Positions 86 to 8,257 of a DNA stretch of 24,991 bases are shown here, piece after piece (positions within the stretch are counted from its first letter, which is position 1; each line of letters opens with the position of its first letter). The position numbers and the translations under genes were made by a program. Source of the stretch: a virus (Duplodnaviria > Heunggongvirae > Uroviricota > Caudoviricetes); the IMG/VR virus record IMGVR_UViG_2706794664_000002; one strand, 5' to 3'. The notes beneath the pieces are model-generated. The model ran no database searches. It was not told where the DNA came from and saw only the letters and a program-made list of their open reading frames with translations.

Positions 86-402
86 CCTTCTTGAGGCTAC
101 CACCTGTTTTCAGGTGTCATTCAGACGTGATTTGCCCCAGATTGGGAAAGCACGCTTTTTTCTCAGCTATCGTCCTCTTATTTTGCCGTTACATTTCTTT
201 TTGCACTCTAATGATTAATTTACAATAATAATATCGGTAATTATTGAGTAATAATAAATTGATTATTGCAAATGTAATTTAATTCCATCTTCGCGTTATA
301 TTCCAATCTTTAATCTCCGCATGGAACAAGTTGCATGCGTGACTATATTAAGACAACTTATAACCACCAAAACATTTGCTTTGCAAGCAAAAACAGTGAC
401 CA

Positions 403-431
403 TTGACTCTAAGAAAATTCCGATCTATTGT
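403..431 (+). promoter_or_regulatory. Candidate sigma70 promoter (-35 TTGACT 403-408, 17-bp spacer, -10 TATTGT 426-431)
   Basis: Hexamers with near-consensus -35 and a 17-bp spacer, upstream of a small ORF and a downstream terminator. AT-rich context makes chance matches likely. Confidence 0.2.
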
Positions 432-465
432 TAGGGTCATCAAAGTTACTTAACAGTATTCCGAA

Positions 466-567
466 ATGAAAATACAAAGCAAGCTAATTGTCTTATTAAA
501 CATTATTATTGCATTTATATTATTTGAGCTTTTAGCTCAAAAATTTGGTTTGAGTACATTATTTTAA
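466..567 (+). CDS. Hypothetical 33-aa hydrophobic peptide (MKIQSKLIVLLNIIIAFILFELLAQKFGLSTLF)
   Basis: ATG at 466 to TAA at 565-567, translated by hand; a single predicted transmembrane-like stretch. No clear Shine-Dalgarno, so it may be non-coding. Confidence 0.15.
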   Translation: MKIQSKLIVLLNIIIAFILFELLAQKFGLSTLF

Positions 568-716
568 AGCAAGATAAACAATATCGGGCACTCTAGTTTT
601 TATAATTAACAATTAAACGTCCATAAAATGTTATTTACTTTTCTTCGCTATTGTCATATCTTAATATAGTGGCTTACGCCACTCTACTTTCATCACATTT
701 TGTACGTTTATGTACT

Positions 717-746
717 CGCCATGAAGCTCTTTCATGGCGATTTTTT
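717..746 (+). terminator. Rho-independent terminator (9-bp stem CGCCATGAA / TTCATGGCG, 5-nt loop, T6 tract)
   Basis: Perfect inverted repeat 717-725 / 731-739 followed by TTTTTT at 741-746 on the plus strand. The minus-strand reading has no U tract, so it is unidirectional. Confidence 0.5.
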
Positions 747-832: not shown

Positions 833-1285
833 TTACCCTATAGGTGCTACTGGCCATTCAATATCCGGTGCAGTTGATGTATCAACACGGTTCAGCAACA
901 CCCGATACTTTTTCCAGGCTTCCAGCAACAAGGTTTCTTTCTCCGTTGCGATCTCCAGATCCACAGCATCCTGAAGCGGCGCTATATGCTCACTGGCTAC
1001 CTGCATCAGGCTGTTTTTTGTTTCTTCCGCCTCCCGGATCCGGAACAGTTTTTCTGCTTCCGTATCCTTCACCCAGGCTGTGCCGTTCCACTTCTGAAAC
1101 TCCCCTTCCGGGGATAACCAGGTGACATTTTCCGGTAATGAGCCGAGTTCAGAAATAAATAACGCGTCGCCGGAAGCCACGTCATAAACCGTTTTACCCC
1201 GATGATCTTCAACGAGATGCCACGATGTTTGCAGGCAGACCTGTATGAGGCGGAATATATGCGTCACCTTCACCAATAAATTCAT
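833..1285 (-). CDS. tfa: Tail fibre assembly protein Tfa, C-terminal domain ORF (150 codons from an internal ATG)
   Basis: Translation ...[28 protein letters not shown]...[22 protein letters not shown] matches the lambda Tfa C-terminal region; stop at 833-835. The lambda-like N-terminus lies in a different frame (see next feature). Confidence 0.75.
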
Positions 1286-1349
1286 TAGTTCCGGCCAGCA
1301 GGTTATAAATTTTTATGGTCCGTGCTTGTTCACTCATTCTGAATGCCAT
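1209..1349 (-). pseudogene. tfa: tfa N-terminal fragment (46 codons, [46 protein letters not shown]), out of frame with the C-terminal ORF
   Basis: Hand translation from the ATG at complement 1347-1349, which overlaps the stf stop as TAATG, reproduces the lambda Tfa N-terminus and then hits TGA at 1209-1211. About 20 codons present in lambda Tfa between PAN and SWHLV are absent, and the two halves differ by one frame. Confidence 0.5.
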
Positions 1350-4025
1350 TATGCGAGCCTCACAATATAGTTAAATGCGATGTTTTTGACGGTGTTTTCC
1401 GCGTTACCAGCAGCGTTAACGGTGATGGTGTGTCCATGTGAACCAATCGCAACAGAGTGCGTATGAGCACCAATACCGACAGTATGCGCGTGTGCACCCG
1501 CAGATGCTGCTGTGCCGGACAGTGAGTGTGTATGGTTTCCTTCTGAAGATGATTTACCTACCCATTGGGAGGTGCCACTGGTTAATGAGCCACTGATACC
1601 AACCTGATTAGTCCCGCTAACTTGAGTACTCCCTGCCGGAAACATTCCAGTAGGTTGACTCCCGCTATTCGTTCTGGGCCCAGTCTGACTATGTTGGTGG
1701 GCCCCAGCTGAACTTGTAGAGCCGCTCAGACTGTGCGTATGCGCCCCGGTGTTATTCGTGGATTTAGTGCCGTAATCAAACGACGATGTGGTTTTCGTCC
1801 CCAAATCCGTACTGGATGCGCTGGCGCTGTGGGTGTGCGATTTAATGCCATCCTGTTCCTGAGACAATACGGCACGACCACTGGCGGGCTTGCCCTTAAT
1901 CGTCCAGCCACGCATATCAGGGATCACGCCTGACGGATAAGCGGCTGCAAGTTTCGGGTAAGCAGATTTGTCAAAAGTCTGCCCCTGCATCAGGGCATAA
2001 CCAGACGGAACGGTATCTGATGGCCACGGGATTGGTGCACCGACTGGATAAAACTCTGCAGGAGGATGAGCCGAGGTGTAAAGCTGCGCCCACGGCGACC
2101 AGTTTGCGTCGGTCGTATCCCGTCGTGAACGAATAAATGCCGGAGCATGAGCACCGCTTGTACCACTCCAGCCGATGAGTAACTCACCTTCGCCAACGGC
2201 TGTCATCCCTTTCAGGTGAATGATATTTCCATACGCTGTTGGATATCCGTTGTTATACACCTCGTATAACTCAAGACCTGCTGCCCCCTGCGTATTGTCT
2301 GTCAGCGCGGCTACCCGACCTTTTGAAGCCAGATTAACTGATGATACTGCTGTTCCACCTGACGGTAGCGCCCCGATCTCTGATGCCGTTGGCTTATTTC
2401 TGGAGTTATAGTCCCTTCGCCAGCCAGGTGAATAATCTGTTCCGTGATTAATATAGGTAAACTGGGCGTTGGTTGTTCCGCCACCGCTGGATGTGGTCGG
2501 AGTGGTAATGCGGATCGTCATCGCTGACTTTATCCCCATTACTTCAATGACAGCTCCGGCGAGATGAATATTACCGCAGCCAGTATCAGTAATGATTTTA
2601 TTATTGCCATAAGACCAGGAACCCTTGCACATCCAGTATGGATGGTTAAATGCTCCCTGAGAATCCAGCCACTCGATAAACTGTGCAGTCGTCCAGTTTC
2701 CTGTTGTTGTGCTTACTGACCCACCGAAGGCACGGCAGGCACCAATATTTTTCGTAAAGGTGTCTTTGCCAGGGATATCCGCACCGTTCTGATCTTTCTG
2801 CAGACGTTTCTCAGCATTGTCATTGGCTGCTTTTACTGCCTTTGGCGTTGCCGCCAGCGTTTCAGACGTGCTGTTGGTCGCGCTGCTTAGCTGGATTATC
2901 CCTTTCTGTGCTGTCGTTGCATCCTGTGCGGTGTATTTCCCGTTAGCCAGGTCATACGCGGCCTTAACGGCTTTTGGTGTTGCCGCCAGTGACTCGGAAG
3001 TGCTGTTAGTCGCACTACTGAGCTGTACTATCCCCTTTTTCGTCGTGCTCGCATCCTCAAGCGCCACGGCGGATGCAATATCCTCTGCCCGTTTTGCCGC
3101 TGTCTCAGCGCGCGTTGCTGCAGATTCCGCCGTACTTTTGCTCTGAGCTGCTGCCGTCGCACTACCAGCAGCCTCTGTCGCCTTCGTGGATGCCGTCGTG
3201 GCGCTGCCCTTCGCTGCTGACGCCTGTCTGGTCGCCTCATCTTTTGAAGCAGACGCCGATGATGCCGATGACGCCGCCGAACTGGCGGACGATGCGGCAG
3301 CCGTTTTTGAGGATTCTNNNNNNNNNNNNNNNNNNNNNNNNNNNNNNNNNNNNNNNNNNNNNNNNNNNNNNNNNNNNNNNNNNNNNNNNNNNNNNNNNNN
3401 NNNNNNNNNNNNNNNNNNNNNNNNNNNNNNNNNNNNNNNNNNNNNNNNNNNNNNNNNNNNNNNNNNNNNNNNNNNNNNNNNNNNNNNNNNNNNNNNNNNN
3501 NNNNNNNNNNNNNNNNNNNNNNNNNNNNNNNNNNNNNNNNNNNNNNNNNNNNNNNNNNNNNNNNNNNNNNNNNNNNNNNNNNNNNNNNNNNNNNNNNNNN
3601 TGATTTCTTCGCGGCTGCCGTGTTCTGTGCCACCGCGGACGCGTTACGCGCCACCTCTTCCACCATCAGCTCAAAACGGCGCAGTGCCTCCGGACGGGCA
3701 TCATCCTCCGTCATGGCACCGAGAAAATCATTCAGNNNNNNNNNNNNNNNNNNNNNNNNNNNNNNNNNNNNNNNNNNNNNNNNNNNNNNNNNNNNNNNNN
3801 NNNNNNNNNNNNNNNNNNNNNNNNNNNNNNNNNNNNNNNNNNNNNNNNNNNNNNNNNNNNNNNNNNNNNNNNNNNNNNNNNNNNNNNNNNNNNNNNNNNN
3901 NNNNNNNNNNNNNNNNNNNNNNNNNNNNNNNNNNNNNNNNNNNNNNNNNNNNNNNNNNNNNNNNNNNNNNNNNNNNNNNNNNNNNNNNNNNNNNNNNNNN
4001 NNNNNNNNNNAATCTTTACTGCCAT
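1349..4025 (-). CDS. stf: Side tail fibre protein Stf (interrupted by N blocks 3318-3600 and 3736-4010)
   Basis: N-terminus MAVKI... at complement 4023-4025; internal [33 protein letters not shown]; C-terminal half with His-rich GAHxHS repeats ending [16 protein letters not shown] (stop 1349-1351). Frame changes across the N blocks, so the length is approximate. Confidence 0.85.
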
Positions 4026-4034
4026 ATTCACCCC

Positions 4035-4063
4035 ACAAAAAAGCCCGCCTGAACCGGCGGGCT
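4035..4063 (-). terminator. Rho-independent terminator between lom and stf
   Basis: On the minus strand: 8-bp GC-rich stem (4056-4063 / 4042-4049), 6-nt loop, then a U tract (plus-strand A run 4035-4041). Confidence 0.5.
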
Positions 4064-4089
4064 GTCATAACACTGTGTTACCTGGCTAA

Positions 4090-4667
4090 TCAGAATTTAT
4101 AACCGACACCCACGATGAAACCGTCAGTGCGCCAGAGACGTGTTGCTGTGGCGACCGTCATCACTTCCGGTCAGCACATCGTGCGTTTTCCCCTTATTGT
4201 CAGTTACGCGGATATAATCCCCGGAAAAAGTCGACACACGGCTGTAAGCCACACCCACCATCGCATACGNNNNNNNNNNNNNNNNNNNNNNNNNNNNNNN
4301 NNNNNNNNNNNNNNNNNNNNNNNNNNNNNNNNNNNNNNNNNNNNNNNNNNNNNNNNNNNNNNNNNNNNNNNNNNNNNNNNNNNNNNNNNNNNNNNNNNNN
4401 NNNNNNNNNNNNNNNNNNNNNNNNNNNNNNNNNNNNNNNNNNNNNNNNNNNNNNNNNNNNNNNNNNNNNNNNNNNNNNNNNNNNNNNNNNNNNNNNNNNN
4501 NNNNNNNNNNNNNNNNNNNNNNNNNNNNNNNNNNNNNNNNNNNNGTTGGTCCGGGCATGAAGATACCCCGCGCTCAGCGTGGACTGATGTTCAGACGCCC
4601 ATGCAGGCGCACCGGATACGGCCAGGCAAATGGCTGCGGACAAAATGGCTGCACAAACTTTACGCAT
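4090..4667 (-). CDS. lom: Outer membrane protein Lom (Ail/Lom family beta-barrel), lysogenic-conversion moron; interrupted by N block 4270-4544
   Basis: N-terminus MRKVCAAILSAAICLAVSGAPAWASEHQSTLSAGYLHARTN (signal peptide) after a GAGG Shine-Dalgarno; C-terminus ...GFIVGVGYKF* with stop at 4090-4092. Confidence 0.85.
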
Positions 4668-4691
4668 AATTACCTCTCGCTTTTCTGCAAT

Positions 4692-4715
4692 AAAAAAGGC
4701 GTCATTCCTGACGCC
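4692..4715 (-). terminator. Rho-independent terminator downstream of J and upstream of lom
   Basis: 7-bp stem GGCGTCA / TGACGCC (4698-4704 / 4709-4715), 4-nt loop, and an A6 run at 4692-4697 on the plus strand (U6 on the minus transcript). Confidence 0.5.
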
Positions 4716-4737
4716 ATTTATTGGGGTTATAAATATT

Positions 4738-7700
4738 TCAACGAATACTGATGCCGGAAGCCGCTTTTTTGGTCACAATCACCGTACAGTCGGTGATATT
4801 GCCTGCCCCCTGATTGCCTTTCTGGAAAATCTTAAACTCCAGAGTGACGCTACCACCACCACTAGGCATATCAATAACTGCACTGTAACTACCGGGAATG
4901 GCACCTTTAGTTTCTCTGGATGCGATTAATACGCCGTTTTTGCGAACTTCAAAACCATAACCCGTGTATCGCGTGCCTCCTGGGTTATTTCCGCTCCCCG
5001 GATCGTCATACGCTATACCGTTAAAAATAATGGGCGGAATAATAATCTGGCGGTCAAAGTTATGATCATCGCTTATGGTGACTGTAACCGTCCCGTTTGG
5101 TGTTTCCGTGTTACCCCACGTACCAGCCTGTTTCGGAAATGATTTGGATACAGCTTTAACGAAGTCACCTCTGACCTGAGTCGCCTCCAGCATGCCCTTA
5201 ATCGTACAGTTTTCATTTACCGTGACATTGTTGAGCGTCCCGGCGTTCGCATTCACACTGCCACTGATATCCGCATTTTTAGCGGTCAGCTTTCCGTCCG
5301 GAGTCAGGGAAAATGCCGATGGATTTCCACCGCTGGTAATGGTGGGGGCCGTCAGGCGTTTCAGGAACACGTCGTTCATGAATATCTGATCGCCCTGACC
5401 AACAAACATCGGTTTTGTGTTGCCATTCGCAGGATTAACCATCGCAATCCTGTCCGCCGCCAGCAGCACCTGACTCTGCATGCCGTCAGGGGTGTTCTCA
5501 ATACCGGCACCAATACCCGCGATATAAAGGCGTCCGTCCTGCATCTGCTGCAGCTTCACAGCCCACATGCTGTTCAGGTTATTATTTGTATCAACCTGAA
5601 CCTTCTGTATCTGCTGAATTGCCGCACTCTGGTCTTCCAGTTTCTTATTGACGGTCTGCGTGATTTCATTGCTGACATCCGTAATGGACGTCCTGATTTC
5701 AGCCAGGTCAGGCGCAAGCTGACCGTTATCAATCTGCGTCCACAGCTCCTGAGCCAGATGGGTTTTCCCTATCTCGCCTTTGAAAAAATCCAGATAACCG
5801 GATGCATCATCACTCGGCTGACCAACAGCCTCCACGAATGCCGATTTGCCAACGGTGTTCACACTGCGGATATAAAAGTAATAATCATGGCCCGGTTTGA
5901 TATTGATACTGGCGGCTATCCAGTACAGCGCCGTGCCAAGATAGCGTGCTGTGGTTTCAACCTGCCTGATATCCGCAATCCGCTTTTCCGAGAACCAGAA
6001 CTCAAACTGTACCGTCGGATCATAAACCGCAAGATGCGGCGTGGCGGTTATCTGAAAATAGCCCGGCGTCAGCTCAATCCGCGACAGCGCTGCCGGTGCG
6101 GCAATCCGGAACGATACCGACGCCGGATCGCCCTGCTGCCCCCACGCATTTACTGCCCGGACTGTCAGCCTGTAGTTCCCCAGCGCCAGTTGTGTGAAGC
6201 GGTAAGTGGTTTCCGTCGTCCGGGCCGTGCTGACCAGCCGCTCACTGCCGTCATCCGCTGTTACGGTCAGACGGAGCAGGAAGCTCACGCCCTTCACCAC
6301 CTTCGGCGTGTCCCAGCGCGCCAGCACCTGATATTCCCCGCTGTCTGCGGTGACTTCGGCAGTCAGGTGCTGCACCGCTGGCGGCGTGACACCATTCACC
6401 GTGCCGCTCTGGTCGCCGTCAAAGTGCGCCCCGTTATCCACGATGGCTTCTTTTTCCGGCACATGCTGCACGGCGGTGATGGCATACGTGCCGTCGTCGT
6501 TCTCACGGATACTCACGCAGCGGAACAATCGCTGGTGCAGCGTCGGCAGCTTCAGCCCCCACACGCTGTATTCAGCAACACCGTCAGGAACACGGCTCAC
6601 TTTTACCTTCACGCCGTCGGTGACGGACTGGACCTCCACGCTGACCGGATTCCCCTGCCCGTNNNNNNNNNNNNNNNNNNNNNNNNNNNNNNNNNNNNNN
6701 NNNNNNNNNNNNNNNNNNNNNNNNNNNNNNNNNNNNNNNNNNNNNNNNNNNNNNNNNNNNNNNNNNNNNNNNNNNNNNNNNNNNNNNNNNNNNNNNNNNN
6801 NNNNNNNNNNNNNNNNNNNNNNNNNNNNNNNNNNNNNNNNNNNNNNNNNNNNNNNNNNNNNNNNNNNNNNNNNNNNNNNNNNNNNNNNNNNNNNNNNNNN
6901 NNNNNNNNNNNNNNNNNNNNNNNNNNNNNNGCCCCCGGCTGGTACAGCCAAAGGCATCCATCTTCGTGACGTTACGACCGTAACGGACAATGGCCTGCGT
7001 ATCCTCCACAAGCTCTGTCGCCGTCTCCCAGCCGTTATCCGGGTCAATCCAGTTCACCTCAACGGCATTATGGCGGTCTTTCAGGGCGCTGAAACTGTAG
7101 CGGAACGGCGCGCCATCATCCGGCATCACCACATTACTGCGGTTATAGGCCCACACCTTATCCGACTGTCGGTCCTGCACGAACGTCAGCGTCTGCCCGT
7201 TCCATACCGGCATACAGCGCATCGCCGAGCAGAAATCACTGAGCACATCCCACGCCTTGCGCTGTGTGGTCAGCCAGGCATTACAGGTGATGCGCGGCTC
7301 CGTGCTGCCAAAGCCGTCCGGCACCGACTGGTCACAGTACTGGCCGATGACATACAGCGCCCATTTATCCACATCTGCCGCACCAAGACGTTTCCCCATG
7401 CCATAGCGCGGATGGGTCAGCATATCCCACAGACACCAGGCCATGTTGTTGCTGTATGCCGGTTTTAACGTTCCGTCCCAGATACCGCTGTATTGCCGCG
7501 TCTGCGGATTATAGTTCGACGGCACCTGCAGAATGCGCCCGCGAAGATGATAATTACGGCTCACCTGCTGGCTGCCGAACTGCTCCGAATCCACCTGTAC
7601 GCCGACCAGTGCCGTGTTCGGGTAGCACTGTTTCACATCGATGATTTCGGTGTATGACGACCAGAGCGTTTTGTTCTGCAGCTGGTCTGTGGTGCTGTCC

Positions 7701-8257
7701 GGCGTCATTCTGCGCATCCGGATATTAAACGGGCGCGGCGGCAGGTTATCCACCACCACCGAGGCCAGATACTGCGAGGTGGTTTTGCCCTTAATGGTGA
7801 TGTCTTTTTCCGTCACCCAGCCACCGTTACGCTGTATCTGAACCAGCAGGCGAACTTCAGACGGATTCCTGTCTCCCTTTGAGGTGGTTTCCACCAGTGC
7901 CTGTACACCGAAGGTAAAACGCAGTCGGTCAATGTTTGCCGACGTGATGGTCCGGGTGATCGGCGTGTCATATTTCACTTCCGTACCCAGCACCGTCTCG
8001 GAGCCGGAGGATTCAAATCCCTCCGGCGGTGACTGCTCCTGCTCACCTGCCCGGAACACCACCGTGACGCCGGAGATGTTGGTATTCCCCTCACTGTCCA
8101 GCACCGGCGTACTGTTCAGCAGCACGCTTTTTAATCCATCCACCGGACCTTCAACCGGCCCTTCGCTGATGGCATCGATCACACTCAGCAGCTGCGTGGA
8201 CTTCAGGTTGTCCTTCGCTTCGCGCGGGGTATGCCCCTTACTGCTGCCTTTACCCAT
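4738..8257 (-). CDS. J: Tail tip / central tail fibre host-specificity protein J (N block 6663-6930 inside)
   Basis: N-terminus [54 protein letters not shown] is lambda J; long ORF continues to the stop at 4738-4740. Two track ORFs (6584-8257, 4738-7047) join across the N block. Confidence 0.92.

Follow-up and report, generated by a model that had tools for sequence, protein, structure and literature searches.

Morons are add-on phage genes that come with their own promoter and terminator. They were defined by Hendrix and colleagues, and examples are lambda bor and lom and the add-on genes of HK97 and HK022. For the locus described here, the nearest characterized protein is YncL (b4598), an inner-membrane stress protein of Escherichia coli K-12 whose gene lies between patD and ortT. 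The expression of yncL increases in minimal medium and upon heat shock (Hemm et al. 2010, as cited in PMC12542507). Production of YncL results in a sublethal membrane depolarisation, a phage-shock response and nucleoid condensation, accompanied by hypersensitivity to antimicrobial peptides and reduced cell viability (PMC12542507). Its cleavage in vivo is dependent on the protease RseP, for which YncL and the Hok proteins were screened together as substrates (PMC10470546). At the RNA level, the Salmonella yncL homologue is found within a transcript that was first catalogued as the sRNA STnc1110 and that needs sigma-S (PMC5437024). The prophage sRNA KilS, which derives from the 3' UTR of Rac kilR, was connected to the yncL mRNA by RIL-seq (PMC8175672).

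The window, i.e. the whole stretch of 24,991 nucleotides analysed here, belongs to a virus of the Caudoviricetes (IMG/VR record IMGVR_UViG_2706794664_000002). Its positions 403-746 are probably an autonomous cargo gene, or moron, of lambdoid prophages, with a + strand transcript of ~310 nt, a YncL-like inner-membrane peptide and a conserved folded 3' UTR. The unit and tfa (833..1285, - strand) converge, and tfa is followed by stf, also on the - strand. An earlier note, made from the letters of the same DNA, had proposed a discrete transcript convergent with tfa. The rightward promoter-to-terminator unit and its convergence with tfa stand at the sequence level, and the transcript itself, at ~310 nt, is a prediction. 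The same note had found nothing in the lambda-like module to explain the unit, which is indeed foreign to the conserved tail module: positions 84-832 are unannotated and contain 28-32% GC against ~52% in the tail genes. Three lineages (that of the window, L038 and L007) are diverged enough to inform on selection, and the identity of each block was computed between the window lineage and the most diverged one, L007. The features are the following.

278-370, no strand assigned: conserved non-coding block upstream of the promoter, 84% identity to L007 (84-87% between lineages, spacers 53-56%)
371-400, no strand assigned: spacer, 53% identity to L007
403-431, + strand: promoter-like site, -35 TTGACT at 403-408, 17-bp spacer, -10 TATTGT at 426-431, C425 before the -10, 9/12 match
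466-567, + strand: 33-codon gene for a YncL-like single-pass membrane peptide, MKIQSKLIVLLNIIIAFILFELLAQKFGLSTLF, on the evidence of intact copies, dN/dS and an NCBIfam YncL match
568-625, + strand: poorly conserved first part of the 3' UTR, 56% identity to L007, with TATAAT at 601-606
626-665, + strand: U-rich segment of the 3' UTR, moderately conserved, 82% identity to L007
666-746, + strand: sRNA-like 3' core, with a hairpin (668-683), a single strand (684-701), a small hairpin (702-715) and the terminator (716-740) with its T-run (741-746)
746-832, no strand assigned: region downstream of the terminator, 67% identity to L007

Conserved blocks are interleaved with near-random spacers (53-56% identity to L007), a pattern that fits selection on separate elements better than one recent exchange. 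Recombination is also evident in the alignments of the unit. Lineage L038 is a hybrid that changes partner inside the 3' core, and strain 2014EL-1345-2 retains only the core, from ~666 on, beside a tfa fragment. The conserved block at 278-370 is possibly a regulatory region of the unit; neither an open or conserved frame on either strand, nor a significant fold (z only ~-1.5 on both strands), nor an Rfam match was found in it.

Conservation of the unit goes together with mobility among tail-fibre loci. A lambdoid prophage integrated at the lambda attachment site, by bio/ybhB, has the same 749 bp, flanked there by tfa and by a gene for an AraC-family regulator. They are also found in viable phages, the sequenced mEp332, PhiR70_1 and ev099. 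A shorter module of ~570 bp (~262-832) follows tfa in the ydfJ prophage, where it is 96% identical, and in prophages beside sitABCD, where it is ~91% and ~79% identical. In these ydfJ and sitABCD prophages (L006:4900-5000, L007:4892-4991), a second tfa 3'-end fragment borders the module at its left, in the same orientation as the right-hand tfa. This arrangement suggests that the module is moved by recombination between copies of tfa. Positions 440-760 were recovered from 827 of 5,426 complete E. coli genomes (~15%), always on the chromosome and in at most four copies each, and none of these copies bears an annotated feature; the copy of the reference commensal strain IAI1 is found at NC_011741.1 complement(853239..853340). 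A 20-mer of the core gave just five matches in 185,579 species-representative genomes, all chance matches from unrelated phyla, and viral and metagenome scans returned no lineage beyond the same three. The module is absent from other prophages that share just the neighbouring 85-nt piece. No paper containing these sequences was found in the literature searched.

This 85-nt segment (84-168) is encountered alone, with 93-100% identity, in several hundred E. coli genomes without the module (ST131, O157, O26, APEC O1), and it falls under a 'capsid protein' annotation in some genomes. Positions 1-83 of the window are an IS1 end, with an identical junction in strain 2009C-3133 (L002:5918-6000); relatives that lack the IS1 have, ~750 bp further left, a gene for an AraC-family regulator (L001:4501-5244). 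On the other side, the tfa region of the window (833-1349) is without ~63 nt of the intact 582-nt gene of its relatives (window 1227 joins L001:7208) and is for this reason split into ORFs 833..1285 and 1209..1349. Within 1349-8257, stf (ORFs 1349..3067 and 3028..4068) and a J-like tail-tip gene (ORFs 4738..7047 and 6584..8257) each consist of two overlapping ORFs, which suggests a decaying prophage. The only Rfam family above its gathering threshold in the whole window is IS009 (RF02111, 218 bits), at 873-1071 on the - strand and wholly within the tfa coding sequence. Phage mEp332 (L143, 15358-16455) carries a separate cargo near its lysis genes, an NmpC-like outer-membrane porin gene.

The resemblance to classic morons lies in the arrangement of the unit and in its distribution. 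Like them, it sits beside conserved late genes, and at the sequence level its gene is flanked by its own conserved promoter-like site (9/12) and by its own 11-pair intrinsic terminator with a T-run. As in classic morons, its base composition is deviant and it is present or absent among related prophages. This patchy presence is seen between conserved phage genes and in three prophage contexts. The product is far smaller than those of classic morons, and expression from the repressed prophage, a trait of the classic ones, is putative for this unit.

The promoter pair described in the earlier note, TTGACT-17-TATTGT, is present on the + strand. Such a match is ordinary, since the promoter scan counted 6 sites of this kind per 2 kb against 4.4 +/- 2.1 in shuffles, and the pair taken alone is not beyond chance. 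It is by their conservation between lineages that the features rise above chance. In all the lineages compared, the -35 hexamer keeps the same sequence and the -10 reads TATTGT or TATCGT, always preceded by C, while the promoter block 401-437 is 86% identical between the window lineage and L007. The promoter would be of the sigma-70 type and, given its -13C, possibly of the sigma-S type. A C also precedes the likely -10 of K-12 yncL, and this base, common to both genes, is what the two sequences may share with sigma-S-type promoters. Transcription is predicted to start near 438. The leader (438-465, 75% identity to L007) would then count only ~28 nt, and the long leader supposed earlier has to be given up: the long part is the 3' UTR, which spans 568-746 (~180 nt). 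The absence of a Shine-Dalgarno, on the other hand, was correctly noted, the anti-Shine-Dalgarno duplex being worth 0.1 kcal/mol against -7.2 for K-12 yncL, which has AAGGTGG. A leaderless mRNA was considered and rejected, the sequence upstream of the ATG showing no acceptable -10 directly adjacent to it.

The 33-codon ORF is ATG-initiated and located at 466-567 on the + strand, as first described. It was extracted from 125 copies and reads through as 33 codons in every one of them, with 7 nucleotide alleles and 4 peptide variants; the stop codon of L007 was confirmed by eye. Two of 127 copies fell outside the extraction pattern, one with ATA for ATG and the other with a small leader insertion and an intact ORF. 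The ATA variant comes from one low-coverage metagenome contig (L139:262-360). One frameshifted allele with a 43-aa product (protein P0018) is a separate record. Between the window lineage and L007, 11 synonymous and 7 non-synonymous changes are counted (dS ~1.0, dN 0.094, dN/dS 0.09), a synonymous excess with a Fisher p of 2e-5, and between the window lineage and L038 the numbers are 4 and 1 (dN/dS 0.05). Codon positions 1, 2 and 3 are identical at 26, 32 and 23 of 33 codons, so that conservation is highest at the second and lowest at the third. The nucleotide identity of the ORF to L007 is 80%, and both other forward frames of the region contain stops. Judged from this substitution pattern, ORF 466-567 is a real gene under strong purifying selection of the coding type. 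It is never called by PGAP, the automatic annotation pipeline of NCBI, and its peptide was predicted just twice among ~15 billion predicted proteins, with no name given.

Other candidates in the vicinity were rejected. Ten other short ORFs lie in 70-797, none of which matches Pfam or NCBIfam or is conserved as coding. ORFs 321..434 and 335..406 lose their start codons in other lineages, and the - strand ORF 661..735 is open only through DNA conservation, its three substitutions all being non-synonymous. A terminator-like hairpin inside the gene (523-541) is disrupted in lineage L007 and is therefore not functional.

The peptide resembles YncL. In a search of 18,950 NCBIfam families, YncL (NF000537) was the sole match of the window peptide (E = 1.3e-5, 25 bits). 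The other two alleles match the same family (E = 3.7e-5 and 7.5e-5; 22.5-25 bits over all three), and seven controls, six shuffled and one reversed, gave no NCBIfam match. These scores are below the curated equivalog cut-off of 35 bits, K-12 YncL itself scoring 68.6. By BLASTP, residues 1-28 align without gaps to K-12 YncL with 39% identity, and M1, S5, L10, N12, A16, L19, F20, L22, F27 and G28 are invariant in the joint alignment. The precomputed Pfam record for the same peptide is PF28073 YncL, marked weak, and a local Pfam scan of the peptide returned no match. A phmmer search of 1.84 billion representative proteins only found the peptide itself and a frameshifted allele, and PHROGs gave no match. 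The homology is thus probable rather than certain, because of the score of 25 against 35 bits and the empty local Pfam scan for a peptide so short and hydrophobic. The small membrane peptide that the earlier note had offered as one alternative gains from these results, through the coding-type selection on the ORF and its distant YncL homology.

The two proteins are alike in length (33 and 31 residues), in having one hydrophobic helix flanked by basic residues, with a mean hydropathy of 2.5 over residues 7-25 against 2.2 for YncL, and in sharing S5, N12, F27 and G28. They differ in their genomic place, the unit being carried by prophages after tfa and K-12 yncL by the chromosome between patD and ortT, in the missing Shine-Dalgarno and in the long conserved 3' UTR, which belongs to the phage unit. 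DNA similarity to the K-12 yncL locus was searched for and none was found. On account of the score below the cut-off, this lack of DNA similarity and the different context, the peptide would be a diverged phage-borne paralogue of YncL and not an orthologue. Carrier genomes presumably retain the chromosomal yncL as well.

A mechanism can be proposed along these lines. The promoter at 403-431 would drive a + strand transcript of ~310 nt that ends at the intrinsic terminator (716-746). Its 33-residue single-pass peptide would most likely insert in the inner membrane of the lysogen, by analogy with YncL, where a reduced membrane potential or an effect on some membrane partner could bring the cell closer to a state of stress or low metabolism. 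The missing Shine-Dalgarno would keep the synthesis of the peptide low, and the folded core of the 3' UTR would at least terminate and stabilise the mRNA. The depolarising function is here carried over from a 39%-identical paralogue studied by overproduction, and it should be read as an analogy.

The 3' UTR is the other conserved part of the unit. Its core certainly supplies the terminator, which the earlier note had recognized: the + strand stem 716-740 has 11 pairs, 5 of them G-C, with -14.4 kcal/mol, and is followed by TTTTTTATT, the U-tail being weaker (CUUUCUUAUU) in two lineages. The 81-nt core is 93% identical to L007, above the 80% of the ORF. Only 2 of the 40 columns at 675-714 are variable, and the 18-nt single strand (684-701) is invariant except for one C/T site. 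All the core elements (two hairpins, single strand, terminator) are predicted in both the window lineage and L007. The fold of 612-748 reaches z = -6.6 in the window lineage, within a range of -5.4 to -6.6 over both lineages. Variants in the core sit in loops or yield G-U pairs when read on the + strand, whereas the - strand would have A-C mismatches at these places; this points to the + as the RNA strand, in agreement with the T-run. As the covariation term amounts to just -0.28 kcal/mol, the predicted structure rests mainly on thermodynamics and conservation. A long-range helix is also predicted in the window lineage, in which 623-631 pairs with 695-703. One of its pairs reads G-C, G-U and A-U across sequences, with one A-C exception, and the minimum-energy fold of L007 lacks the helix.

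With a 3' core that is better conserved than its ORF, the unit may have another product besides the peptide, which may not even be the main one. A tentative possibility is that the unit gives two products, the peptide and a trans-acting sRNA of the Hfq type from core 666-746, made by processing or from an internal promoter near 601-606; such an arrangement is compatible with the best explanation, that of an autonomous cargo gene. It would account for a core at 93% identity between lineages beside an ORF at 80% and spacers at 53-56%, for the succession in both lineages of a 5' hairpin, an invariant 18-nt single strand, a second hairpin and a U-tailed terminator, for the fold z-scores, for the G-U variants that favour the + as the RNA strand and for the one strain that keeps the core alone. 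The only Rfam similarities of the core, all weak, are moreover to the Hfq-binding sRNAs MicC (22.8 bits against a gathering threshold of 90), Esr41 (15.6 against 102) and RseX. Against this stand several results. No Rfam family meets its gathering threshold in the unit or comes near it, compensatory change is seen at just one pair, and recombination could partly explain the high identity, as the L038 hybrid switches partner within the core. The TATAAT at 601-606, possibly an internal -10, reads TACAAT in L007, and neither a scan nor reading of the sequence found an acceptable -35 for an internal promoter there.

The same holds for targets. Side tail fibres use OmpC, which made a MicC mimic acting on ompC an attractive idea. 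It was rejected: beyond the Rfam similarity of 22.8 bits, the MicC-like 5' residues change in L007 and the predicted pairing with the ompC leader is weak, with a duplex z of -1.9 against -4.1 for real MicC. Pairing of the 3' core with its own 5' region or with the chromosomal yncL mRNA gave no signal. Among the 68 translation start regions of phage mEp332, all of which were tested, none stood out as a partner of the core, the longest exact complement being 10 nt. The unit shares with known 3'-UTR-derived sRNAs a conserved 3' UTR, a Rho-independent terminator and a conserved single strand upstream of it. It differs from them in having no family match, and a separate RNA, Hfq binding and a target are putative in its case. 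The sRNA of the earlier note, when taken as an alternative to the peptide, is rejected for the ORF region, where selection is of the coding type, and what is kept of it concerns the core. A dual-output moron in the full sense, making a YncL-like peptide along with an Hfq-type sRNA of 80-130 nt (either cleaved out of the 3' UTR or initiated inside it) whose invariant segment 684-701 would regulate host or phage mRNAs, is doubtful. If true, it would be a prophage-borne dual-function locus in one of seven E. coli genomes, overlooked by annotation.

A type I toxin-antitoxin module, in which a membrane toxin peptide is restrained by an antisense or nearby small RNA, is improbable. The features that recall TisB, ZorO, Ibs, Ldr and Hok are a prophage-borne, hydrophobic membrane peptide of fewer than 50 residues with a weak translation signal, and a homologue, YncL, that lowers viability when produced (PMC12542507). 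Unlike these systems, the unit has neither a cognate antisense or divergent sRNA, nor a long processed leader, nor sequence similarity to them. The antisense RNA for which the earlier note advised a search was looked for in silico, and no conserved - strand promoter-plus-terminator pair was found; the sole - strand promoter-like site (657..628) loses its -35 in L007. The direct and inverted repeats by which the flanks could be connected to the mRNA are short, and none of them is conserved. The loci examined have no tandem paralogous copies, PADLOC gave no match, and YncL is undescribed as a toxin-antitoxin member in the YncL literature consulted. Since the defining antitoxin RNA was not found, the type I reading is unsupported, and so is the toxin architecture seen earlier in this region: the searches yielded neither a gene for an antisense or divergent RNA nor a stretch of complementarity that is conserved, and the leader is short instead of long.

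That the unit is a purely non-coding RNA or a product of chance, its ORF having arisen by accident in AT-rich DNA or the region being what is left of a larger, decayed gene, is highly improbable, for in spite of the missing Shine-Dalgarno, of the ease with which promoter-like hexamers and short hydrophobic ORFs come in AT-rich DNA and of the silence of PGAP, this reading is already contradicted by the substitution pattern (dN/dS 0.05-0.09, frame-specific codon positions) and by a specific YncL match that the shuffled controls lack, none of the ten neighbouring ORFs having either a family match or coding conservation. The case that the earlier note had allowed for, a degraded piece of a larger known gene, is likewise contradicted: YncL itself is 31 residues long, so that the ORF is full length for its family, and the other short ORFs of the spacer are matchless and unconserved as coding.

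On sequence grounds, positions 403-746 are thus best described as an unannotated phage moron that encodes a YncL-like small membrane protein and carries an sRNA-like conserved 3' UTR. The gap in annotation is concrete, since the peptide was called only twice among the ~15 billion predicted proteins and was never named. Only recently were small membrane proteins of the YncL type linked with a depolarised membrane and a silenced metabolism (PMC12542507). The presence of a diverged copy on lambdoid phages would mean that phages deploy such peptides as cargo of lysogenic conversion, for which the possible pay-offs are stress tolerance, persistence, resistance to antimicrobial peptides and exclusion of other phages. 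As mEp332 grows on K-12, the gene is directly testable in an isogenic lysogen, and this phage and host would make a tractable system for what YncL-type peptides do for a prophage.
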